The notes: generated from the letters alone by a model not told the origin. Counted from the stretch's first letter, positions 5,135-33,369 are shown. The stretch is DNA of 64,000 bases from Anaerolineae bacterium (GCA_963675785.1 OY776562.1:3104001-3168000); one strand, 5' to 3'. Translations and numbers: made by a program.

Positions 5135-5377
5135 ACAAAAAACGTCTCGCCCCAAACTTCAGGGACGAGACGCAATGCTCGCGGTACCACCCCGTTTGAT
5201 TGCTCTATGCTAAAGAGCAACCCACTCGGCCAGCCAGTAACGCGACTGAGACGTCCGGTCATACTCTGTTCTGCCCGGCTGCTCATCGGCCCATTCACCC
5301 GGTACTCGCGGCTCCGTTCGCAGCACAGGGAGCTCTCTTACGCTGTTTGCCAGGCTACTATTCCGAATCAACGCATT
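5135..5377 (-). ncRNA. T-box riboswitch with Trp (UGG) specifier
   Basis: On the minus strand: AGTA, AGAGA and GCTG stem I motifs, specifier loop GAA-TGG-G (TGG at 5293-5291), T-box AAACGGGGTGGTACCGCG (5197-5180), then terminator GCGTCTCGTCCC...GGGGCGAGACG-TTTTTT. Confidence 0.93.
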
Positions 5378-5383
5378 GGCAAC

Positions 5384-20160: not shown

Positions 20161-20172
20161 ATTTCCGAATAG

Positions 20173-20276
20173 CTCTCCGAGTTATGTGGCCTGAGGCCAA
20201 TCCTTTGGGCGGGTATGGCGCATAACCGATGGGTGCGGGTGGAAACGCCCGCGCCTCCCGTGTTTGGAAAGGGGAG
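20173..20276 (+). ncRNA. Moco-class riboswitch lacking P3 (tungsten-cofactor-type variant)
   Basis: P1 CTCTCC/GGGGAG, CTCCGAG, P2 GTTATG/CATAAC enclosing CCTGAG...GTATGG, CGATGG, P4 with GGAAAC GNRA loop, GCCTCCCG-TGTT-TGGAAAGG 3' signature. Recognised by eye against the Moco RNA motif. Confidence 0.85.
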
Positions 20277-20294
20277 ACGTTTTCCTGCTCGTTC

Positions 20295-20333
20295 AGCGAG
20301 TAGGCGTCTTCTTGCGCCTGCTCGCTTTTTGTT
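20295..20333 (+). terminator. riboswitch-controlled intrinsic terminator
   Basis: 12-bp stem AGCGAGTAGGCG/CGCCTGCTCGCT followed by TTTTGTT, 19 bp before the ECF S-component start. Confidence 0.85.
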
Positions 20334-20351
20334 GTGTAGAGGACAGTAAAA

Positions 20352-21710
20352 TTGACGGAAGAAAAACGTTACTATTTTACCACGCGGGACTTGCTTATTA
20401 TGGCCGCCATGGCTGGCCTGGGTGGTGTGGCTAGTACGGCAATCAATGCGCTTGGTGATGTGATGCAGGCAGCCTTGGGTTTTGCTGGCACTACGCAGTG
20501 GGCCGCCGGTCTTCACACAATCTTTTTGCTTCTTGTTGTGGGGCTGGTTCGTAAAGGCGGTGCAGCTACATTGGCCGGATTGCTCAAGGGGGCCGTTGAG
20601 CTGCTCAGTGGCAACACCCACGGCATTATTATTCTATTGGTTGATTTAGCAGCTGGATTGATCATCGATTTGGTTTTTGCCCTGGTACAGCAGCGCCAAA
20701 GCCTATTGGTTTATATACTGGCTGGTGCATTTTCGGCGGCCAGTAACGTCATTGTTTTTCAATTGTTTGCTCTGGCGCCGGAAGATGTCCTTGCAGCTGT
20801 CTGGCTGGTGGCCCTGGTTGCAGCGGTTTCGGGCGCACTGCTAGGCGGTTGGGTTGCATGGTTGCTGCTGGGTGTGCTTCACAAGAATGGTCTGGTTCGA
20901 GAGGAGCCGGTGCGTACCATGCGCGGCTGGCGCTATGCTGTGTTTCTAGGCGTTTTTGCGCTGATTCTCATTGGCGGGAGCTGGACCATGGTGGAATCCT
21001 TGGCTGGGCCGCCGGTGATCGATATTCGTGTGGATGGCGAGGTGGTCTACCAATTTTCGCCCGATGACGACAACCTACCTCTCATTGTCGAAGATGTCGA
21101 ACTGAACGGCATCAAACGTAGTGTAAGCGGCTATAAATTGGCCGAGGTCATTGCTTTGGCTGTCAGTGGTACGGAATATGGCTCGGCGCTAATCTCTGCC
21201 ACGGATGGCTATTCCTTTTTCATTACTGATCGCGAGATTGAGGAAAACACAGAGCTGCTGTTGGCAGTGAGCGGCGAGGGTGAGGACACCAGTTACGAGA
21301 TCGTCGGTGCCGAGAACTCGAAAGCCTGGGTGCGTAACGTAGCTACCATTGATCTGGCCGAACAAACGCTCATCGAGGTGTCGGGCTTGATTGGTCTGCC
21401 CTCACCCTACAATCCCGCTGACTGGCAATACGAGATGGACAGTGCCTATCTGGATGTGGGGTATGGCGAGCAAAAATACCAGGGAACTATTGCCGCCGAT
21501 GTGCTGACAGCCTGGGAACCTTCAACAGGCGCAGAATCGGCCGTATTTTACAGTGCGGATGAACAGGTTGAACTAAGCCTGGAAGAGATTGCCACGGATC
21601 GCAGCTTGCGCATTTGGTCGGTCAATGCTGCTGGTGGAACCAGTTTTGCTCTGGCCACTGAAGGTGGCGAGATATTGTTGACCGACGTCGAACGTATCGA
21701 GGTCAAATGA
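20352..21710 (+). CDS. ECF transporter S-component (YkoE-like) fused to two extracytoplasmic molybdopterin-binding-like domains
   Basis: N-terminal ~180 aa: FTTRDLLIMA, LVRKGGAA, about 6 TM. Then one TM and soluble repeats SGYKLAEVI..ATDGY..WVRNVATI and VSGLI..YQG..ADVL..DVERIEV. Confidence 0.8.
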   Translation: MTEEKRYYFTTRDLLIMAAMAGLGGVASTAINALGDVMQAALGFAGTTQWAAGLHTIFLLLVVGLVRKGGAATLAGLLKGAVELLSGNTHGIIILLVDLAAGLIIDLVFALVQQRQSLLVYILAGAFSAASNVIVFQLFALAPEDVLAAVWLVALVAAVSGALLGGWVAWLLLGVLHKNGLVREEPVRTMRGWRYAVFLGVFALILIGGSWTMVESLAGPPVIDIRVDGEVVYQFSPDDDNLPLIVEDVELNGIKRSVSGYKLAEVIALAVSGTEYGSALISATDGYSFFITDREIEENTELLLAVSGEGEDTSYEIVGAENSKAWVRNVATIDLAEQTLIEVSGLIGLPSPYNPADWQYEMDSAYLDVGYGEQKYQGTIAADVLTAWEPSTGAESAVFYSADEQVELSLEEIATDRSLRIWSVNAAGGTSFALATEGGEILLTDVERIEVK

Positions 21711-21713
21711 ACT

Positions 21714-23162
21714 GTGTCTGAGCCGATGGTGCGCATCGACCAGCTCTCTTTTCGCTATGCAGCTGGTGAAACGCTGGCCCTCGATCATGTTTCGCTGGCG
21801 GTCGACAAGGGCGAGTTTGTGGTGTTGACCGGACCAAGCGGCTGCGGCAAGTCGACGTTGGCACTAGCCATGGGCGGTTACCTGGCGCATCAATTCAAAG
21901 GAGAGTTCGAGGGCACTGTTGAGGTGGCCGACGTCGATACGCTCCGAGAGCCGCTTTATCAGGTGGCGGACGTGGTCGGTTTGGTGCAGCAGAACCCGGA
22001 GGATCAGTTTTGCACCTTGCGGGTGGACGATGAGGTGGCCTTTGGTCCAGAGAATCGTTGTGTAGAGCCACTGATGATTCGCCAACTTGAGCAGAATTCG
22101 TTGATGAGGGCTCAAGCTCAGCATCTTGAGGGTCGTCTGCTGGATTCGCTCTCTGGCGGTGAAAAGCAACGGGTGGCTCTGGCGTCTATGCTGGCTGGCA
22201 CGCCGCAATTGTTGATTTTGGACGAGCCCACATCCAGCCTCGACCCTCAGGCTACACAGGATGTGTTGGCAGTATTGGATAATCTTCGTCGCGAGCGTGG
22301 CCTGACTCTGATCGTCATCGAACACAAATTGGATGCCCTGATGCGCTTTAATCCGCGTATTGTGCGTATGGCCCAGGGGCACATCGAACAAGATCATTCT
22401 GTTTTTCAGCCAACTGTACCCGTAGTTCATGCACCCTCAATGGCAGGTAAGGTTGCTGTGGCACTAGAGGGCGTCTCCGTCACTCTAGAAGATCATCACG
22501 CACTCGATAACGTAACTGTAGATTTTCACTCTGGCCAGTTGACTGCTCTGATGGGAGCCAATGGTGCTGGCAAGACCACACTCTTGCGGGTCATCCGCGG
22601 TTTACAGCCTGTGCGGAGAGGTTGTGTTTGTGTGTTAGGTCAGGATGTTGCCAAGGATACTGTGTCAGCTCTAGCCGGGCGCGTGGGGTTTATGTTTCAG
22701 AATCCCGATCACCAGTTGCTAAGCGATACGGTGCAAGGTGACATGGCTTTTGGTCTATCTGCCCAGCAGGTCACCCAAGATGCACTTTATCATCAGCAAT
22801 TGCTTGAATTGGCTGGTCTTTGGGAGCTGCGCAATAGACACCCCTTTTCTCTGAGCTATGGGCAAAAGAGGCGTCTGAATCTGTCTTCACTGTTGGCGCA
22901 AAAACCGCAGATCATTCTGGTTGACGAACCGCTCATTGGGCAGGACCCTAACAACGCCCAGTATGTCATGGGGGTGCTCAGGGCCGCTGCGGATGAAGGC
23001 GTTTGTGTGATCGCGGCACTTCATGCCCCGGGGATGGTTCAGCGCTTTGCAGACAGGGTTGTGTTTTTGGCTCAGGGGCGTATCGATATCGATGCGGCAC
23101 CGGATGCTGCCTTTGCCGCATTGTCTTCCTCCGGGCGCAAAGCTTTTGCAGGTATGTTATGA
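21714..23162 (+). CDS. ECF transporter double ATPase (A-A' fusion)
   Basis: Two ABC domains: GPSGCGKST/QNPEDQ/LSGGEKQR and GANGAGKTT/QNPDHQ/LSYGQKRR. Confidence 0.93.
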   Translation: MSEPMVRIDQLSFRYAAGETLALDHVSLAVDKGEFVVLTGPSGCGKSTLALAMGGYLAHQFKGEFEGTVEVADVDTLREPLYQVADVVGLVQQNPEDQFCTLRVDDEVAFGPENRCVEPLMIRQLEQNSLMRAQAQHLEGRLLDSLSGGEKQRVALASMLAGTPQLLILDEPTSSLDPQATQDVLAVLDNLRRERGLTLIVIEHKLDALMRFNPRIVRMAQGHIEQDHSVFQPTVPVVHAPSMAGKVAVALEGVSVTLEDHHALDNVTVDFHSGQLTALMGANGAGKTTLLRVIRGLQPVRRGCVCVLGQDVAKDTVSALAGRVGFMFQNPDHQLLSDTVQGDMAFGLSAQQVTQDALYHQQLLELAGLWELRNRHPFSLSYGQKRRLNLSSLLAQKPQIILVDEPLIGQDPNNAQYVMGVLRAAADEGVCVIAALHAPGMVQRFADRVVFLAQGRIDIDAAPDAAFAALSSSGRKAFAGML

Positions 23163-23911
23163 CAGCCAGCATGAGCCGTCTCGGAGTGGTTGGGCGCATT
23201 CATCCCTTACCCAAATTTGCCTGGCTCCTGGCTGTTTCGGTGGCCGTGTTTGTGGTGGGCCAACCGGTGGTTATTTGGGCCATCGTCCTAGGGCTCGTAC
23301 TGGTGGGTTATCCTTATCTGGTCGGTAGGTCGCGTGCGTTCCGCCTGACTATATTCTCTACGTTGGGACTTTTTCTGCTGCAGGCGCTATTTTACCACCA
23401 GGGACGGGTGCTGTTCGATCTGTGGCCGGGAGAGGCGCAATGGTCGGTGACAGTAGACGGTCTGCTACGCGGACTGCGTGTATCGGGTCGCTTTCTCGCC
23501 ATTATACTGGCCAGCCAGGTGTTTGTAGGGTCGACAGACTCTAGCGAACTGGCCTACAGCCTGATGCAGGCTGGCGTTCCCTATCGATTTGGCTTTGCGC
23601 TTGTCTCAGCCCTGCGTATGACGCCTATGTTTCGCAGTGAGGGTCGTACAGTGTACGAAGCTCAACTTTGCCGAGGCGTGGCGCTGGATCGCGGTGGCTT
23701 GCGTGGCCTTTTGGTTAGGCTGCAGCGCTTTTTGTTGCCGCTGGTGGTATCTGCTCTCAGAAGGGTCGATAGCCTGTCCATCTCGATGGAAGGCCGACAC
23801 TTTGGGCGTTATCGAACCCGAACCTTTGCACAACCTTTGCATCACCACCGCAGAGACTACGCGGTCTGGGGGTTATTGATTTTTTTCATCGCCATCATCG
23901 TCGTCCTGTAG
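23159..23911 (+). CDS. ecfT: ECF transporter T-component (EcfT/CbiQ)
   Basis: HPLPK, ALRMTP, EAQLCRG and SMEGRHF (two XRX motifs); ATGA overlap with the ATPase stop. Confidence 0.92.
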   Translation: MTASMSRLGVVGRIHPLPKFAWLLAVSVAVFVVGQPVVIWAIVLGLVLVGYPYLVGRSRAFRLTIFSTLGLFLLQALFYHQGRVLFDLWPGEAQWSVTVDGLLRGLRVSGRFLAIILASQVFVGSTDSSELAYSLMQAGVPYRFGFALVSALRMTPMFRSEGRTVYEAQLCRGVALDRGGLRGLLVRLQRFLLPLVVSALRRVDSLSISMEGRHFGRYRTRTFAQPLHHHRRDYAVWGLLIFFIAIIVVL

Positions 23912-23921
23912 GTGGGCCAAT

Positions 23922-25844
23922 ATGTGGAACGAGTTTCTGTACAGTATCGCGACCTATCCCTACCTCTATGCACTGTTCACTGGCGTTATGCTCCTGTGGA
24001 TCACTGTAGGGCTACACGCCCTACGTCGTGTGCGGCAGGCGCCTGACGAGCGACCACGCCTCACCTTCAAAAAATTTGGCGCTGCATTCCAAGAAGCGTT
24101 GGTTCAACGGCGCATCTGGCGGAGGCCTCTGGCCGGTGCGATGCACCTCTGCCTGTTTGCCGCAGGGGTGCTCATTCTGGTGGCCTATATTATGACTCAC
24201 CATGTTGCCCCTCGTGGCGAGGCTTGGCAGGCCAGCCGCACTGCACATTTCATTGCTGATTTGGGCGTAATGCTAGGTTTTGTTGGACATATGCTGGCGG
24301 GCTGGCGACGTTTTATTCGCAAAGAGACCTCTCGCGCCTTTAGCGATGTGCTGTTGTGGGGCTTGGGCTTTGTGTTCATCATCGCCTATGGCCTGGCTAA
24401 TGCGTTACAGGTGGCCATCACCGATCCAAATTGGCAGCGTGCGGCCTTTTTGAGCCGCCCGATAGCTGGGCTTTTCTCAGGCATGGCGACTCTTACACTG
24501 CGCTCACTTTACGGGTTAGTTTGGGCTCTTGTCCACGGCTCTTTGTTCGTAGGCGTTTTGCTGGTACCCCTGACCAAGTGGCGCCACGTTTTGGCAATCG
24601 TAGTCAACCTTGCGCATGCGGACGATCTTCCGCCAGCAGTAGCTGTCTCCGAGGATCTGAATGGTGATGGGCCCTTTGGTCTGGGGCGAACGGATCAGCT
24701 CAGCAAGAAGCAACTCTACGAAACCTGGGCTTGCGTTCGTTGTGGGCGTTGTAGCACGGTCTGTCCGGCAACGATGACTGGCAAGATGCTTGATCCGCTC
24801 AAACTGATAGAGGCCGAGCTGGAAGCCCCAAGGATGGCCAGCTTACCCGACTTTATCGATCAGGAGGCACTTTGGCAGTGCAGCATGTGCCTGGCCTGCG
24901 CGGATGTATGCCCTGCGGATATTGCCCCCTGGCGCCATTTACTGGATATGCGTCGCGAGCGCGTGCTGGAGGCGGCCGAGTTTCCCCAAGAGCTTCAAGG
25001 CGTTTTTCGCGGCATAGAGCGGCGCGGCAACCCGTGGGGCACGGCTACCAACAAGAGCGAAATCGCTCGTGAAGCAGGTGTGCGCCTATTATCCAAAGGC
25101 GATTCTTGCGATGTGTTGCTGTGGATGGGCTGTATGGTGGCGGTGGACCCACTGGCACAGCAGGCCTGGCGGGCTATGGCGCAGTTGTTGGCAGCGGCCG
25201 ACGTCGATGTGGCTTGCCTGGGCGATGCCGAGCCCTGCTGCGGCGATGCAGCACGCCGTCTAGGCAATGAGTACATCTGGCAGCAACAGGTGGAGACCGT
25301 GAGTGATGCCATGCATGATATTCATGTGGGACGGGTTGTCTCAGTTTGCCCACATTGCGCTAACACTTTGGGCAACGAGTATCCGCAGGGACTTTGGCAG
25401 GGCGTGTCTCACGCTCTTGAAGAATTGAGCTGTCTGGCCCAGGAGGGGCGTATCGTCCCCGAGGCACATCAGGTCAAGCCCTGTCGTGTGGTTTACCATG
25501 ATCCTTGCTATTTGGCGCGCGGCCTTGACGTCATTGATTCTGTGCGCCGACTGCTTGTTGCCACGCCAGGTTGCGAACTAGTCGAGCCTGCGCACAAGGG
25601 CAAGGATGTGTGGTGTTGCGGTGCGGGCGGCGGCCAGATGTGGCTTCAAGAGGATGACGGTGCGGCTTTGGGCCAGTCACTCTTTGATGAACTGGCCAAT
25701 ACCAAGGCCGAACTAATACTCTCTGCATGTCCTTATTGTGATACGACACTGCAATCTGAGTTTGGCAATACGAACGATGTAAGTGATGTGGTGATTTTTA
25801 TCGCCAATCGATGGCGTGCTAGTGACAGGAGTGATCAAGGGTGA
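23922..25844 (+). CDS. membrane-bound HdrD/GlpC/FadF-like Fe-S oxidoreductase
   Basis: N-terminal ~6 TM with several His; CVRCGRCSTVCP and CSMCLACADVCP (2x 4Fe-4S); two CCG domains (CCG..CPHC; HDPC..CCG..CPYC). Confidence 0.9.
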   Translation: MWNEFLYSIATYPYLYALFTGVMLLWITVGLHALRRVRQAPDERPRLTFKKFGAAFQEALVQRRIWRRPLAGAMHLCLFAAGVLILVAYIMTHHVAPRGEAWQASRTAHFIADLGVMLGFVGHMLAGWRRFIRKETSRAFSDVLLWGLGFVFIIAYGLANALQVAITDPNWQRAAFLSRPIAGLFSGMATLTLRSLYGLVWALVHGSLFVGVLLVPLTKWRHVLAIVVNLAHADDLPPAVAVSEDLNGDGPFGLGRTDQLSKKQLYETWACVRCGRCSTVCPATMTGKMLDPLKLIEAELEAPRMASLPDFIDQEALWQCSMCLACADVCPADIAPWRHLLDMRRERVLEAAEFPQELQGVFRGIERRGNPWGTATNKSEIAREAGVRLLSKGDSCDVLLWMGCMVAVDPLAQQAWRAMAQLLAAADVDVACLGDAEPCCGDAARRLGNEYIWQQQVETVSDAMHDIHVGRVVSVCPHCANTLGNEYPQGLWQGVSHALEELSCLAQEGRIVPEAHQVKPCRVVYHDPCYLARGLDVIDSVRRLLVATPGCELVEPAHKGKDVWCCGAGGGQMWLQEDDGAALGQSLFDELANTKAELILSACPYCDTTLQSEFGNTNDVSDVVIFIANRWRASDRSDQG

Positions 25845-26689
25845 GCAAGCGATGGACGTGGCTCCTCGTCGGGGCCATTGGTGTTGTAATCGGTATCGGT
25901 TTGGCCAGCTGGAAGACCTTTCCCATCGAGGATATGATTGCACGAACTACTTGCGCTGAATGTCATGATGTGCACGGGGCTCTCGAAATTGCCCAAGTTC
26001 CAGCTCAGAGCCAGGTCTGGATCTTGGGCGATGTGCCGGAATCCACTTATTTCTTTGTAAATGATCTTTTTCCTCTTGCAGACGAGACGGAGGGTACGAG
26101 TATTTCACTCATCGACTTGTTGGCCGATTATGGGGTGACGGATTGGGAAAAGGTCTCAATTGAATCCCTCGATGGCGGACTGGTAACGCTGGAGCGCCAG
26201 TATGTCACGGAGAATTCCCTTCTTGTGCCCTATGTCGATGGCATTCGCTTCAAGGATGTCAATCTGCACGAATCCACCTGGCTCAAGGGTGTACGCTTTA
26301 TCACTGTACAGGGCAGCGAGACGCCCCTGCTTCTCGGAGATACGCAGACTTCGTTAGGGCGTTTGCTGATGGGTGATCGCACAGCCGTTATAGCCGAAGC
26401 CAGTGATGCGCTATATTCCAGTCCTGTGGACGGACAGATTTACCAGGGTAACTATGCGCACATTTACACTGGCGCGTCGCTTGTTTCACTGTTGACGGCT
26501 TACCCAGAGGCAACTACTTTTGCCTGCACCAGCCAGGATAGCGAGACGGTATCATACACACGTGAGGAACTACAAGAGGCTGTCATTGCGCCGGTATCTG
26601 GTTTGCCTTCGCTGGTGCTGCCGCAGTATGGTCAGGGGAGCTGGGTCATTGGGATTGAGAGCATTGTGCCAGAGGATGGGGAGAGTTGA
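25841..26689 (+). CDS. membrane-anchored protein with CxxCH heme motif and two molybdopterin-binding-like domains
   Basis: N-terminal TM, CAECH at 25952-25966, then SLIDLL..SLDGG..WLKGVRFITV and YTGASLVSLL..SQD..PSLVLP..WVIGIESI. Confidence 0.7.
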   Translation: MSKRWTWLLVGAIGVVIGIGLASWKTFPIEDMIARTTCAECHDVHGALEIAQVPAQSQVWILGDVPESTYFFVNDLFPLADETEGTSISLIDLLADYGVTDWEKVSIESLDGGLVTLERQYVTENSLLVPYVDGIRFKDVNLHESTWLKGVRFITVQGSETPLLLGDTQTSLGRLLMGDRTAVIAEASDALYSSPVDGQIYQGNYAHIYTGASLVSLLTAYPEATTFACTSQDSETVSYTREELQEAVIAPVSGLPSLVLPQYGQGSWVIGIESIVPEDGES

Positions 26690-26690
26690 T

Positions 26691-27824
26691 ATGTTGCGAG
26701 TGAAGAGATTGGGGGCATTGCCAAGTGCGCTACTGGCGATAGCCCTAGTTGCGGGTTGTTCGCCCAGGTGGGAGATTGGACTGACCATTGATGGGGATGT
26801 ACGTTCACCGCTTACTGGCCAGCAATGGAGCACGGCACTAGAAAGTTATCCGGATGAATGCGTTGAAGATAGTGTTCCCCTGGAACGGCTTTTATCCATG
26901 GCTTCTGTTCCGGCGGTAGAGTCAGTAAGCGTAGACGACCAATCATGGTATTGGGCCGATGTGTATGACGATGCCTGGGTAGAAAAGGGCGGTACGCTGG
27001 TCATCGCTGGTGAAAGCATAGAGACAAAAGATATTAGCATCGTTTTGCCGACACTTGATGCTTCGGTAACAGTTGAGCTGATAGATATTGCTCCCACAAT
27101 TGCTGGCGCGTTGGGAGTTCGTTCGCCGGAGGATACTGAGGGCCGTGCTGTAGCAGCTTTTGACGCCGAACATGTCGTCCATATTTTTTTGGATGGCTTT
27201 GGCTATGAGAACTATCAATCGGTTGTAGGTACGCGCACTACATCCTTTCTAGACAGCCTGGGCGCTCCGCGTATTGCCCGAACAGTTTACCCTAGTGCGA
27301 CCAAGGCCTCGACGGCCGCGATGATTACCGGCGCTTCGCCCACGGTGAATGGTGTTTCTTCTGGTGAACTGCGCACCACCGAAAGCGAGACGATCTTTCA
27401 GGTTCTGACTGAGGCAGGGCTTTCTAGTGTGGCCGTGGAAGGTTCATCTTTGGCTTTCAATCTGGTCTCGACAGAGATCATTGTCTCGGGTGACCGCGAC
27501 GATGACGGCTATTCGGACGACAATACTTATGAGAATGCCCTCGAAGTGATGAACGAGGGATTGCCCGATTTCCTCTGGGTGCATTTTCATGGAATCGACG
27601 ATGCTGGGCACACGTACGGTCCGTTAGCTGACGAGACGCTGGCTATGATGACACGCGTGGATGGCTATGTTTCTGATATCGTACAGCGATTACCCGAGGG
27701 AACTCTGGTGATCATTTGCGCCGATCATGGAATGCACGATGTGGTAGAAGATGGCCGTCTGGGGAACCACGGTTCCCTCTTGTCTCAGGATATGTATATT
27801 CCCTTCTGGACGATTCAACTCTGA
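26691..27824 (+). CDS. lipoprotein of the alkaline phosphatase superfamily (nucleotide pyrophosphatase/phosphodiesterase-like)
   Basis: Lipobox LVAGC; metal-ligand motifs FLDGFG, YPSAT (Thr nucleophile), DDAGH, ADHG, GNHG. Confidence 0.85.
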   Translation: MLRVKRLGALPSALLAIALVAGCSPRWEIGLTIDGDVRSPLTGQQWSTALESYPDECVEDSVPLERLLSMASVPAVESVSVDDQSWYWADVYDDAWVEKGGTLVIAGESIETKDISIVLPTLDASVTVELIDIAPTIAGALGVRSPEDTEGRAVAAFDAEHVVHIFLDGFGYENYQSVVGTRTTSFLDSLGAPRIARTVYPSATKASTAAMITGASPTVNGVSSGELRTTESETIFQVLTEAGLSSVAVEGSSLAFNLVSTEIIVSGDRDDDGYSDDNTYENALEVMNEGLPDFLWVHFHGIDDAGHTYGPLADETLAMMTRVDGYVSDIVQRLPEGTLVIICADHGMHDVVEDGRLGNHGSLLSQDMYIPFWTIQL

Positions 27825-27832
27825 GTATAATG

Positions 27833-27877
27833 AAAGGGCGGGGAAGAGATTGGCCTCTTCCCCGCCCTTTTTTTTAT
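27833..27877. terminator. intrinsic terminator between the two convergent riboswitch-controlled units
   Basis: AAAGGGCGGGGAAGAG-ATTGGC-CTCTTCCCCGCCCTTT followed by a long T-tract. Confidence 0.9.
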
Positions 27878-28353
27878 TCGACGACTTCGATACTCGTGAG
27901 TTTGTATAGCCAGCCATCGGCTGGTAGGTTGGGTATTACAACGCGAATAGGGGCGGTCTTGGTGTCGTCAGTGGTATAGACGCCATCCCTCTTCAAAGCG
28001 ATGATAGCCTGATCAAGATCCGAGATATTGACCTCCTTGGCATAGCCATCAGAGGCGGTGAGCAAGAGGCTGACGGCATTTTCACTCATGCCGGCTTCTT
28101 CCAAAATAGCCATCAGGTCGGGGCCTTCCCATGTGTTGGTCTCATTTTCGCCTTGCGACTTGCGCATGAGGACATTTTCGAGCACTACCTGATCCCGCTC
28201 AGTGAGATCCTGGTATGAGAGCGTAAGAGGCGTTTCTACGGCTCCAGTGATTTCTAGGTTCCAATCAACTTTGGGGGCACCATTACCGCAGCCTGTGGCA
28301 ACCAGCATGACGATGACAATAGCAACTACCATGGTAAGCGAGCGTTTTCTCAT
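27874..28353 (-). CDS. lipoprotein with a molybdopterin-binding (sulfite oxidase/MsrP-fold) domain lacking the Mo-ligating Cys
   Basis: Start MRKRSL with AAAGGA RBS; lipobox VATGC; WNLEITGAVETPLTLSYQDL, TWEG..L, ASDGY, PIRVVIP, WLYKLTSIEV. No Cys in the mature domain. Confidence 0.85.
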   Translation of the reverse strand: MRKRSLTMVVAIVIVMLVATGCGNGAPKVDWNLEITGAVETPLTLSYQDLTERDQVVLENVLMRKSQGENETNTWEGPDLMAILEEAGMSENAVSLLLTASDGYAKEVNISDLDQAIIALKRDGVYTTDDTKTAPIRVVIPNLPADGWLYKLTSIEVVE

Positions 28354-28448
28354 TTTGATCCTTTCGATATAGGAAGAATGCTCGCTCATGTCCGCCGTCG
28401 TGTTTGTACACAACAACACACAGCACGATTTTCGTGCTGCGATTGCGG

Positions 28449-28574
28449 TTCTCCTTTCCAAACACGGGCGGCATGAGCGTTTCCACTCAGACCGTTCGCC
28501 GGGCAATTGTGGTTGCCTGGCTGCGATCGCAGACCCTAGAGTTTTCTGTTCCGTAGGCCGTGCGATTCGGAGAA
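28449..28574 (-). ncRNA. Moco riboswitch with P3 stem (molybdenum-cofactor type)
   Basis: On the minus strand: P1 TTCTCC/GGAGAA, P2 ATCGCA/TGCGAT enclosing CCTACGG...TAGGG, P3 GCCAGGCAA/TTGCCCGGC (28521-28498), P4 TGAGT-GGAAAC-GCTCA, GCCGCCCG-TGTT-TGGAAAGGAG. Confidence 0.85.
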
Positions 28575-28593
28575 CAGTCTATTCACTAGGGCT

Positions 28594-28622
28594 ATTCTAA
28601 ACCATGGATTCTGTCTCGGCAA
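28594..28622 (-). promoter_or_regulatory. sigma70 promoter for the second Moco riboswitch unit
   Basis: TTGCCG-17bp-TAGAAT about 20 bp upstream of the aptamer. Confidence 0.65.
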
Positions 28623-31437: not shown

Positions 31438-33369
31438 TTACTTTTTGATACTTGTTTCCATGCTGCGAACGGTCAAGTAGGCAAGGAGGATCAAGAGGAG
31501 GGTAGCCCCAACAGCCAGGATATAGAGGTATGTTTGGTTCGTAGAAACGACCGAGGATTCGAATGTGAGCTTTTCACCCCAGGCCAGCAACTCTGAGGTG
31601 CTTTGGTCGGGCAGATCGACGTAAAATCGCCAATAGCTTGACGTCTGCGCCGTTTGCCAAGCGGATTTCTCGTCTGCCAGAACCGCAGCCAGTAATTGTG
31701 CTTCGGCTGTGGCGCTTGCAGAGGAGATGTTCTCTGTTTTAACCTCAATTTCTCGCCATTCAGCATAGTTTGTGGCTATTTCCCATGCTTCTGCCAACGC
31801 TACCGTGCTGATCTCCTCAGTAAATCCAAAAGAGGAGAGCAACCCCTGCTCCGTTGAAAAAGTCATGGCGCTTTCTGTAGGAAAGGCTGTTGTTAACGTT
31901 TGAACAATCAAAGTGGTGGGGACGGGCATCTTTGCCAGAGCCCTTTGGTTCAGTTCGGCGAGCTCATCAATGGAAGCATATGTCTCTGTCACAGTCATGA
32001 TTAGCGAAGATTCGGGCGAAATATCGATTGTGATGCCATCGACTCCCGTCAATATACTAGCCAGTGAAGTAAGCTCGGCGTGTGTTTGTTCTATCGTGGG
32101 TTCGTAAGGATCAAAATCCAAAACGATCTGCCGATAGGATTCTGTGGTCAGTACATCTACGCCCACGGAGCGAAACGGCGGTGCATATTCCAAGAGCTGG
32201 GCATAGTCGTTTTCGTCCAATAACTCTTGACTTTCTTCAATAGCTCGGTTTGTCTCTCCCTGGTTGGCAAGTTGAGCCAGCCATTCCAAATAGAGAGTTC
32301 TGGTTTCTTCTTCATCCAAGGCAAGGCCACCGAGATCTTGCGCGTATTCTAAATAGTGTAGAGCAGAAACTGGATCACCGTCTTCAGAAAGCTTGACGGC
32401 GATGCGATAGTAAATTTCGGCCAGAGAGGCATCTACGTCAAGCGAAGTATCGGCAGTTTTGGCTTGCTCGAGTTGATCTGCTGCAATCAGTAAATAGTTA
32501 AGGCTTTCGGCATTCACAGTGCTAGCTTTTTCTAACCATATATTGACCAACATGATTCTGGCGCTACTGTCCTGAGGATTGTTGTCGATGACGGTCTGCA
32601 ATTCTCCGGTCAGGCGATCCGTCCAATTCTCATCCTCAATGCCCAGATTTTCTGTTGCTTGTGTGATCTCCGATAGGAGGGCAGCTGTCGCCACATGATC
32701 TTGTTGTTCTTCAGCTGTACGCAACGAGGTCCATATTGCGGGAACCAGCATCACAACATGATGTGCAGGCAAGGCCTTTTCTTCGTATGACCAGAAAAAC
32801 TCTTTGCCGTCCAAGGCTTGGCCGTGTGGGAACATGGTGAAAAAGGCTTCGTCTGTGGCAATGGCACCATAATTCACACGTACCGAGGCACTGGCTGGGG
32901 TTCCCCAGTGCGACAAAAGGTCAGTTTGCGATTGCCAGTCAAGGATGATGGCGTTTTCGATGCCATAACTAGAGCGCATCCGTAAGGTTGTCTCGCCAGC
33001 AACCAGGCCGATAGTCCAAGTTTGGTTTTCACTTGCTGAAACTGCCGTTTGGTTCGCCGTGAGTTGCCGTGTTGGCTGAATGGCGCTCTCGGACTCGTAG
33101 TCAGGCAAGTACAATGTCACCGCTGTCAGGCTCTCGCTATCCAGAAGGTATTCCTGGGTGCAAACCACCTCGTTGACGCCGATCTCAACTTCTTGGATGT
33201 AGGCTTTTAACGTGACGCCAGAGGGCAAGTTGGCGGGCAATAGGGGCATGTCCTCGATAATGGCGATCGACGATTCGGCGGCAACAGATTGGGGCAGCAC
33301 AAATGCTGGCAACATAAATGCAGCCAACAAAATGATCATGGCGATTGCAAAACGAGGCGTATTTTTCAT
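31438..33369 (-). CDS. secreted, C-terminally anchored hypothetical protein with TPR-like helical region
   Basis: N-terminal signal peptide, acidic body, central Ala/Leu/Tyr helical repeats, C-terminal TM. Confidence 0.7.
   Translation of the reverse strand: MKNTPRFAIAMIILLAAFMLPAFVLPQSVAAESSIAIIEDMPLLPANLPSGVTLKAYIQEVEIGVNEVVCTQEYLLDSESLTAVTLYLPDYESESAIQPTRQLTANQTAVSASENQTWTIGLVAGETTLRMRSSYGIENAIILDWQSQTDLLSHWGTPASASVRVNYGAIATDEAFFTMFPHGQALDGKEFFWSYEEKALPAHHVVMLVPAIWTSLRTAEEQQDHVATAALLSEITQATENLGIEDENWTDRLTGELQTVIDNNPQDSSARIMLVNIWLEKASTVNAESLNYLLIAADQLEQAKTADTSLDVDASLAEIYYRIAVKLSEDGDPVSALHYLEYAQDLGGLALDEEETRTLYLEWLAQLANQGETNRAIEESQELLDENDYAQLLEYAPPFRSVGVDVLTTESYRQIVLDFDPYEPTIEQTHAELTSLASILTGVDGITIDISPESSLIMTVTETYASIDELAELNQRALAKMPVPTTLIVQTLTTAFPTESAMTFSTEQGLLSSFGFTEEISTVALAEAWEIATNYAEWREIEVKTENISSASATAEAQLLAAVLADEKSAWQTAQTSSYWRFYVDLPDQSTSELLAWGEKLTFESSVVSTNQTYLYILAVGATLLLILLAYLTVRSMETSIKK

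Follow-up and report, generated by a model that had tools for sequence, protein, structure and literature searches.

A stretch of 64,000 nucleotides from an Anaerolineae bacterium (GCA_963675785.1, OY776562.1:3104001-3168000; the whole stretch is called the window below) carries a locus in which two RNA aptamers of family RF01055, the Moco/Tuco (molybdenum/tungsten cofactor) class, flank a six-gene operon for an energy-coupling factor (ECF) transporter and a single convergent gene for a small lipoprotein, LipoA2. Our analysis suggests that this locus is probably a riboswitch-repressed salvage system for metal-loaded pyranopterin cofactor, Tuco and/or Moco, and not for molybdate or tungstate. 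This reading is based on the identity of the riboswitches and their P3 status, on the gene families and their folds, on the absence of cofactor biosynthesis genes from the host, and on the statistics of co-occurrence across related genomes.

Two Moco/Tuco aptamers of different type flank the locus

The whole window was scanned with cmscan against Rfam 15 at gathering thresholds, which for RF01055 is a score of 36 bits. Three matches were obtained, two of them to RF01055: aptamer 1 at 20163-20290 on the plus strand (73.0 bits, E 1e-15) and aptamer 2 at 28436-28584 on the minus strand (60.0 bits, E 6.7e-12), both covering model positions 1-135. The limits which a sequence-only reading of the same DNA had assigned to the two elements (20173-20276 and 28574-28449) lie inside these matches, and its structural description was borne out as well. 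In the alignment of aptamer 1, the 15 model positions of P3 form a single gap, and the closing strand of P2 is followed by a GAU joiner and the opening of P4, so that this aptamer passes straight from P2 to P4 and is P3-less ('Tuco type'). In aptamer 2 ('Moco type') the P3 positions are occupied and carry an additional 19-nt insertion. The extra stem proposed for this aptamer at 28521-28498 (minus strand) occurs at exactly that position, aligns to P3 of RF01055 and forms eight of nine pairs, with one A.C mismatch in the minus-strand reading. It is also present in the unconstrained minimum free energy (MFE) fold of 28400-28584 (minus strand), in which P1, P2, P3, P4 and P5 all form and a terminator hairpin comes next; the z-score of this fold is -5.2, and none of 200 shuffles folded equally well. 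Both aptamer matches and the difference in P3 between them are therefore confirmed as real and far beyond chance.

Each aptamer is followed by a terminator-like expression platform. Downstream of aptamer 1, a hairpin at 20295-20326 with a 13-pair stem, eight of the pairs being G-C, is succeeded by TTTTTG (20295-20332 including the T run, plus strand). In the predicted fold of the full leader, the 3' half of this hairpin is paired to the P2 3' strand, which might represent a possible anti-terminator. The platform of aptamer 2 is a 10-pair stem with a T-rich tail (28441-28419, minus strand) which adjoins the aptamer in the MFE fold. Upstream of aptamer 2 lies a weak promoter-like site (28594-28622, minus strand; TTGCCG, 17 nt, TAGAAT, nine of twelve matches), and the region is not enriched in such sites relative to shuffled sequence.

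A third RF01055 copy, bearing P3, is located elsewhere in the host genome (contig coordinates G000:C1:851663-851798). Each of the three copies carried by the host controls the ECF operon or small lipoproteins resembling LipoA2. Downstream of the third copy two small lipoproteins of 136 and 160 residues are encoded in tandem (L001 1501-2726; G000:C1:851663-852888); neither matches Pfam, both are paralogous to LipoA2 (blastp E 3e-12), and both contain no cysteine except that of the lipobox.

The operon encodes an ECF transporter with an ectodomain

Aptamer 1 is followed by six co-directional genes which extend up to a strong hairpin at 27832-27871 (17-pair stem, ten G-C pairs, T run), situated between the operon and the convergent LipoA2 gene. 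ORF1 (20352-21710, plus strand) encodes an ECF S component of the YkoE-like family (PF09819, E 4e-16) which is extended by a seventh membrane helix and two beta domains. In its AlphaFold2 (AF2) model (mean per-residue confidence, pLDDT, 84.4) the helices occupy residues 11-216 and the beta domains residues 223-340 and 341-452; as the six helices of the S component are followed by a seventh, the two beta-rich domains must face outward. By Foldseek, the N-terminal part resembles 5edl, an S component (E 8.5e-7, TM-score on the target, TMt, 0.74); matches of the C-terminal part are to SorA and YedY, in their Moco domains, and to PruR, which binds pterin (7kom, TMt 0.67). Residues 218-337 are homologous to the LipoA2 family (hhalign probability 97.6%, E 4e-12), which marks the first beta domain as SUOX/PruR-like. 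No cysteine is invariant among 48 sequences of the ORF1 family.

The transporter core is completed by ORF2, a fused EcfA1-EcfA2 ATPase (21714-23162, plus strand; TIGR04520, 330.8 bits against a cut-off of 315, with two ABC_tran stretches), and ORF3, an EcfT transmembrane component of the CbiQ family (23159-23911, plus strand; PF02361, E 1.8e-22, 80.5 bits against a cut-off of 25). S component, EcfT and two EcfA domains are thus encoded together, as in ECF transporters of the dedicated type. A feature of that class which is not shared here is the lack of an extracytoplasmic binding protein or domain, since about 235 outward-facing SUOX-like residues are carried by the S component and a paralogous lipoprotein is encoded alongside. 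The sequence-only reading had proposed an importer whose metal specificity could be switched by a separate, exchangeable binding protein. As ECF transporters do not use separate binding proteins, the family assignment of ORF1 to ORF3 does not support this idea.

Three further genes complete the operon. ORF4 (23922-25844, plus strand) comprises, according to its translation, a hydrophobic N-terminal region of about 250 residues followed by an HdrD-like part with a 4Fe-4S dicluster and two CCG domains (PF02754 in two stretches, E 3.1e-26; Fer4_8, E 4.2e-9). ORF5 (25841-26689, plus strand) has no match in Pfam or NCBIfam; it is a membrane-anchored protein with a CxxCH (heme-c) motif, in which C38, C41, H42 and H45 are invariant across seven orthologs, and its C-terminal end forms a SUOX-like half-domain, residues 205-279 being matched to the LipoA2 family by hhalign (94.5%, E 7.4e-8). 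ORF5 orthologs at two related loci without an HdrD-like gene (L026 5805-6722 and L024 6221-7267) contain a second CxxCH upstream of the invariant one, which hints at a diheme variant. ORF6 (26691-27824, plus strand) encodes a lipoprotein of the type I phosphodiesterase/nucleotide pyrophosphatase family (PF01663, E 2.8e-18); its lipobox cysteine and Asp, His and Thr motifs resembling a metal site are invariant in six orthologs, and we take these Asp, His and Thr residues to be the metal ligands and the nucleophile. An apparent further SUOX-like domain at the N-terminus of ORF6 was rejected, as the hhalign match is limited to the signal peptide and the lipobox.

LipoA2 is a stand-alone SUOX-fold lipoprotein without the metal-ligand cysteine

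LipoA2 (27874-28353, minus strand), the single gene under aptamer 2, encodes a lipoprotein of 159 residues which consists of a stand-alone SUOX-fold domain. Its only Pfam match is PF00174 (E 2.3e-14), and no match was found to PF13531 or PF12849. The AF2 model (pLDDT 85.7) contains a long beta hairpin with strands at 55-63 and 71-79. Foldseek placed it with SorA (E 9.6e-9, TM-score on the query, TMq, 0.72), YedY (TMq 0.71) and PruR (7kom, TMt 0.74), and a profile search matched PruR 7kos (E 1.1e-5). LipoA2 and ORF1 thus share the fold of the Moco domain of SUOX-family molybdoenzymes, and the metal-ligating cysteine of these enzymes is missing from both families: among 41 sequences of the LipoA2 family the lipobox residue Cys22 is the sole invariant cysteine, and the stretch of SorA that separates the two blocks of the alignment corresponds to LipoA2 residues 53-72, which are free of cysteine. 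Invariant in the family are an Asp-Gly-Tyr motif, a C-terminal Trp, and Met63, Ser66, Gly68 and Glu69. The signal peptides, as read from translations and alignment, are of the lipoprotein type and have no twin-arginine motif. LipoA2 is thus a Cys-less pterin/Moco-domain paralog of the ORF1 ectodomain and not an oxyanion binder; the suggestion that it serves as a binding protein which switches the importer between molybdenum and tungsten is at odds with a SUOX-fold domain which is not of the ModA, TupA or WtpA type.

The closest precedent is PruR, a secreted Cys-less SUOX-fold protein of solved structure in which a Tyr and a Trp enclose the bound pterin from both sides (PMC11194511). Like PruR (PDB 7kos, 7kou, 7kom and 7rkb), LipoA2 is small, secreted and stand-alone and lacks the metal-ligand cysteine, and its conserved Tyr and Trp lie at positions that may correspond to those of the PruR pterin sandwich. 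PruR is characterized by a Pro-Trp motif at the position of the cysteine, a truncated hairpin and an operon shared with a DcpA-type regulator (PMC11194511). In contrast, LipoA2 has no Pro-Trp at this position, keeps the long hairpin in its model and has no partner of the DcpA type, and genes of the LipoA2 type belong to a transporter operon headed by a Moco/Tuco riboswitch. The homologous Cys-less SUOX-fold modules of the locus, taken with the precedent of PruR, count in favor of a role in pterin capture. In a protein atlas, clusters combining PF09819 and PF00174 have mostly archaeal recorded members, Thorarchaeota being the commonest, so that fusions of S component and SUOX domain may, as a lead only, occur outside Chloroflexota.

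The host has cofactor-dependent enzymes and lacks the pathway

The host genome is a single contig of 3.22 Mb with 94.8% completeness. Six-frame family searches of this genome for MoaC, the C-terminal domain of MoaA, MoeA_N and MoaE all remained without a match; as a positive control, each of these searches gave matches in 11 of 14 reference genomes. The sole MoCF_biosynth protein, a candidate for MogA or MoeA, was identified as CinA. A MobA-like gene is present with 102 bits, which is under the curated cut-off. At the same time the genome encodes three tungsten-type members of the aldehyde:ferredoxin oxidoreductase family (AFOR_N, E 4e-60 to 2e-69), a DmsA/YnfE-family enzyme of 706 residues and a PF00174 lipoprotein which bears the cysteine. 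A second PF00384 match turned out to be NuoG/HoxU-like. From its gene content, the host is predicted to be unable to make the Mo/W cofactor, and the need for cofactor without its synthesis supports salvage.

Searches with PF13531 and PF12849 found no binding protein of the ModA, WtpA or TupA type genome-wide, and this lack of a dedicated metal importer was counted in favor of the salvage of finished cofactor. Matches to PBP_like_2 and SBP_bac_11, candidates for TupA or ModA, belong to a fused PstS adjoining PstC and PstB. This PstS is a 565-residue fusion of two PstS domains, encoded beside PstC, PstA and PstB (L020 4136-5833; G000:C1:1962135-1963832). An orphan protein of 297 residues was likewise discarded as an oxyanion binder; its match scores 33 bits, its gene lies beside those for UppP and an MBL-fold hydrolase, and it matches no molybdate or tungstate model. 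As the host has none of MoaA, MoaC, MoaE and MoeA, and hence no enzymes to place molybdate or tungstate into the pterin, an imported oxyanion could not be used, and the view of the operon as an oxyanion importer finds no support in this genome.

The locus is conserved and often co-occurs with absence of pathway genes

A search for relatives of ORF1 returned 596 matches. Those with a named source are metagenome bins of Chloroflexi/Anaerolineae, and many carry PF09819 together with PF00174. With one genome kept per species, 122 genomes had an ORF1 relative, and the best 80 of these 122 loci were examined. In 71 of the 80 an RF01055-type leader precedes the S gene at a distance of 700 nt or less, which, together with the two terminator-bearing aptamers flanking the locus of the window, supports cofactor-linked regulation. 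The common architecture is a leader followed by the genes for S, A and T, ORF5, the phosphodiesterase and LipoA2, and the conservation of this cluster was counted for the salvage reading. Downstream gene content was scored where 6.5 kb or more of sequence follows, which applied to 43 loci: ORF5 was found in 40, the phosphodiesterase ORF6 in 36 and the HdrD-like ORF4 in five. The LipoA2 ortholog is co-directional with the transporter operon in 34, found on the opposite strand only in seven and absent from two, and thus appears usually to be co-transcribed with the transporter.

MoaC is present in 32 of the 80 carriers of the locus, in one of them as a 40-position fragment only, and absent from the other 48. 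None of these 48 has the C-terminal domain of MoaA and 37 lack MoeA_N, while all of them encode AFOR_N, with between one and 20 genes each. As a background we used an evenly drawn sample of the class comprising 151 genomes, of which 140 have MoaC and 137 have AFOR_N. In this sample, MoaC is missing from four of the eight genomes with the locus compared to four of the 129 with AFOR_N and without a full-length ORF1 relative. Four relatives from the family of the host all have MoaC, and none has the locus.

P3 types vary among the related loci

A covariance model built from ten aptamers identified 86 aptamers across the 80 loci, 75 without P3 and 11 with it. The leader of the transporter is P3-less in 64 loci and P3-bearing in seven, with the type of one leader (L090) assigned by eye; in six loci none was seen within 700 nt, and three are cut by the contig end. 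The P3 sequences of the seven P3-bearing transporter leaders resemble each other. The base preceding the CCC that follows P4 is a C in all 11 P3-bearing aptamers and in five of the 75 P3-less ones, indicating that the two types differ beyond the stem itself.

A correlation between loss of P3 and tungsten genes, invoked by the sequence-only reading, is indeed found in the literature. Regulski et al. (2008) described 58 of 176 motifs as P3-less and linked them to tungsten-cofactor genes (PMC2408646), and a 2024 study of Eubacterium limosum took P3-less copies as tungsten-cofactor switches (PMC11725836). In the excerpts consulted of both, the support for P3 as the element which sets metal specificity is correlative. 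The P3-less importer leader fits this published tungsten link in organisms rich in aldehyde oxidoreductases. Whether lipoprotein and transporter are generally split between the two types was addressed in the nine split loci in which both leaders could be scored. Six show a P3-less transporter leader and a P3-bearing lipoprotein leader (the window itself, G064, L029, L032, L046 and L100), one is reversed (L049), and two are P3-less on both sides (L040 and L042). The division of types proposed for the window therefore recurs in most of the split loci and does not hold throughout, and the LipoA2-type lipoprotein is not tied to a P3-type aptamer. A stricter rule, one aptamer of each type in every two-aptamer locus, agreed with the first four loci and was broken by L040 and L042.

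Some related arrangements were also observed. Pairs of P3-less aptamers on the same strand, 100-600 nt apart, occur at L040 15661-16354, L042 16538-17236, L077 6479-7175 and L061 7333-7679, in three of these four loci upstream of arrays of LipoA2-like genes; they may be tandem switches or may each belong to a small gene of their own. At L053 (6401-6550) and L066 (6414-6559) a distance of 3.4 kb, which includes other genes, separates the sole aptamer from the S gene downstream of it. In E. limosum, P3-less aptamers are found ahead of a FocA-like gene and of two operons with the annotation 'iron ABC transporter' (PMC11725836); given the present locus, the substrates of these transporters may merit re-examination.

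The surroundings of the locus in the window are unrelated to it, with flanking genes for a maltodextrin phosphorylase, KduD and a major facilitator superfamily (MFS) transporter. Elsewhere in the window, a T-box leader (RF00230, 115 bits; 5158-5380, minus strand) lies directly upstream of a class I tRNA synthetase gene of the Trp/Tyr type (PF00579; 4058-5155, minus strand), and an open reading frame of 643 residues without a match in NCBIfam or Pfam is located at 31438-33369 (minus strand).

Discussion

The locus combines features of two known kinds of system. Like the ECF importers of the YkoE type for thiamine/hydroxymethylpyrimidine (HMP) and those with ThiT, RibU, FolT or QueT, it has a dedicated S component, a fused A1A2 ATPase and a T component, and its S domain has the PF09819/5edl fold. 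As in riboswitch-controlled ECF vitamin importers, a leader with an aptamer for an end-product cofactor is followed by a terminator. Different from these importers, the leader contains the Moco/Tuco aptamer, the S component carries a seventh helix and two outward-facing domains, and the operon has in addition a stand-alone binding-type lipoprotein, a nucleotide pyrophosphatase, a protein with a heme-c motif and, in some loci, one that is HdrD-like. Among the coenzyme uptake systems in a riboswitch regulon survey of 2013, transporters are given for B12, thiamin, riboflavin, queuosine and folate, and in the excerpt consulted none for Moco (PMC3766115). With the Moco/Tuco regulons described by Regulski et al. 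(2008; PMC2408646), which comprise moaABCDE, modABC, tupABC and cofactor-using enzymes, the locus shares the aptamer family in its two P3 variants and the terminator platforms; here, in contrast, the genes under control belong neither to biosynthesis nor to oxyanion transport, and the host is without the pathway.

Mo/W cofactors are so labile that they are regarded as self-made by every user. The only accepted exception found in the excerpts of the literature searched are nematodes, which obtain dietary Moco from other organisms and can use protein-bound cofactor (PMC7849362, PMC9793310). The reliance on cofactor made by others is the same; nematodes are eukaryotes whose uptake route is unknown, whereas here a specific prokaryotic transporter is a candidate. 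In the literature searched we found no description of a bacterial importer of Moco, Tuco or molybdopterin, with the limitation that the supplementary tables of Regulski et al. (2008) and of the E. limosum study may list similar operons, and according to a review from 2026 the way in which pterins pass through membranes is unknown (PMC13259868). We consider it rather probable that the locus is new in being a vitamin-type ECF importer with a new class of substrate, a receptor ectodomain and new accessory proteins.

The substrate, the functions given to ORF4, ORF5 and ORF6, the action of the terminators as OFF switches and the metal form sensed by each aptamer are inferred from the combined features of the locus, and a working model might be as follows. 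Outside the cell, lipid- or membrane-anchored SUOX/PruR-fold modules, namely the two beta domains of ORF1, the C-terminal part of ORF5 and LipoA2, all four of them without the catalytic cysteine, would capture the cofactor. ORF6 would trim the dinucleotide forms (molybdopterin guanine and cytosine dinucleotide, MGD and MCD) to the nucleotide-free pterin, and the heme-c motif protein ORF5, in the sub-clade of the host assisted by the HdrD-like ORF4, would keep the oxygen-labile ligand reduced or free it from carriers. The YkoE-like S component would then pass the cofactor to EcfT and EcfA1A2 for ATP-driven uptake. Aldehyde oxidoreductases use a nucleotide-free tungsten bis-pterin, and the imported cofactor would serve the three aldehyde:ferredoxin oxidoreductases of the host and, after a MobA-like step converting Mo-molybdopterin to the dinucleotide, the DmsA-like enzyme. 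Plentiful cofactor would bind the leader aptamers and cause the terminators to form, switching expression off.

Three other explanations have to be weighed against cofactor salvage. That the system takes up a pterin precursor or a different pterin, such as metal-free molybdopterin, cyclic pyranopterin monophosphate (cPMP) or a non-Moco pterin of the PruR type, and not the finished cofactor, appears unlikely. In its favor, MoeA_N is retained in 11 of the 48 carriers without MoaC and would there insert the metal into molybdopterin taken up from outside; small non-Moco pterins are the ligands of PruR-type relatives (PMC11194511); and the S component resembles YkoE. The host and the 37 of the 48 in which MoeA_N was not found do not conform to this explanation, as without MoaE and MoeA the host could complete neither cPMP nor metal-free molybdopterin. 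Moreover, the leaders belong to the Moco/Tuco class, and the LipoA2 model retains a long hairpin where PruR is described as truncated, provided that the two hairpins are equivalent.

We regard it as improbable that the SUOX-fold, heme-c motif and HdrD-like proteins form an extracytoplasmic pterin-dependent redox enzyme of the MsrPQ kind, whose expression would be tied to the cofactor by the riboswitch, with the ECF transporter importing another substrate or maturing the enzyme. The missing metal-ligand cysteine in the LipoA2 and ORF1 families speaks against a catalytic role even though the best scores of these domains are to true enzymes, SorA and YedY. The lipoprotein signals without a twin-arginine motif imply export without cofactor. 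The CxxCH of the ORF5 orthologs is invariant and ORF4 has 4Fe-4S and CCG domains, as such an enzyme system would suggest, yet an HdrD-like gene occurs in merely five of the 43 loci. RF01055 is known upstream of cofactor-using enzymes (PMC2408646); the terminator layout, however, suggests repression by cofactor, the reverse of the control required by an enzyme that uses it, and the absence of MoaC from 48 of the 80 carriers would be left unexplained.

The model of the sequence-only reading, in which the operon imports oxyanion and the separately regulated lipoprotein is an exchangeable binding protein switching between tungsten and molybdenum, draws on the unequal leaders, the published P3 correlation (PMC2408646), the six conforming split loci and the 32 MoaC-bearing carriers, which could use oxyanion, and is nevertheless highly improbable in view of the ECF-type transporter, the PF00174 identity of LipoA2, the lack of the pathway in the host and likewise of MoaC and MoeA_N in 37 of the 48, the single leader shared by the LipoA2 ortholog and the transporter in 34 of 43 loci, and the reversed or identical aptamer types in three split loci. 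In sum, that interpretation is partly supported: its aptamers and their types hold, and in a weaker form LipoA2 may be an accessory capture module under separate cofactor control.

Several points weigh against the salvage of finished cofactor. Free cofactor is notoriously labile, and its salvage from the environment would be chemically demanding. The support assembled here is of three kinds only, namely sequence, predicted structures and co-occurrence. The co-occurrence counts treat related genomes, which are not independent because of their kinship; completeness figures of the 80 carrier genomes are not reported; and as moaA and moaC are often neighbors, their joint absence does not amount to two independent observations. 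Four genomes of the class sample have AFOR_N and neither MoaC nor the locus, although these are fragmented (320-520 contigs, 84-93% complete), and either gene may merely be unassembled. The 32 carriers with MoaC demonstrate that the system is not confined to auxotrophs; this is common in vitamin salvage and nevertheless weakens the argument. An extracytoplasmic redox enzyme would also be consistent with the heme-c motif and the HdrD-like protein. Since the S component is closest to YkoE, which we take to be an S component of the thiamine/HMP type, another pterin or pyrimidine substrate is conceivable, and the 11 MoaC-less carriers that keep MoeA suggest that some lineages import a metal-free precursor.

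If cofactor salvage is correct, Moco/Tuco would join B12, thiamine and queuosine as traded cofactors, and Cys-less SUOX-fold proteins would be natural carriers of the cofactor. To our knowledge, discrimination between Mo and W by an RNA has never been directly shown, and the natural pair of a P3-less and a P3-bearing leader provides a test bed for it. Salvage would further explain the tungsten enzymes of abundant, hard-to-culture Anaerolineae in sludge and sediments and suggest a supplement for isolation media. Taken as a whole, we hold the chances to be evenly balanced that the locus represents the first identifiable prokaryotic importer of Mo/W pyranopterin; that many Anaerolineae, among them the 48 of 80 carriers without MoaA and MoaC and with one to 20 tungsten-type oxidoreductases, are auxotrophs living on the cofactor of their neighbors; that the aptamer types of split loci tune the capture of Mo and W forms separately; and that Moco/Tuco would thus be a 'vitamin' exchanged in anaerobic communities.

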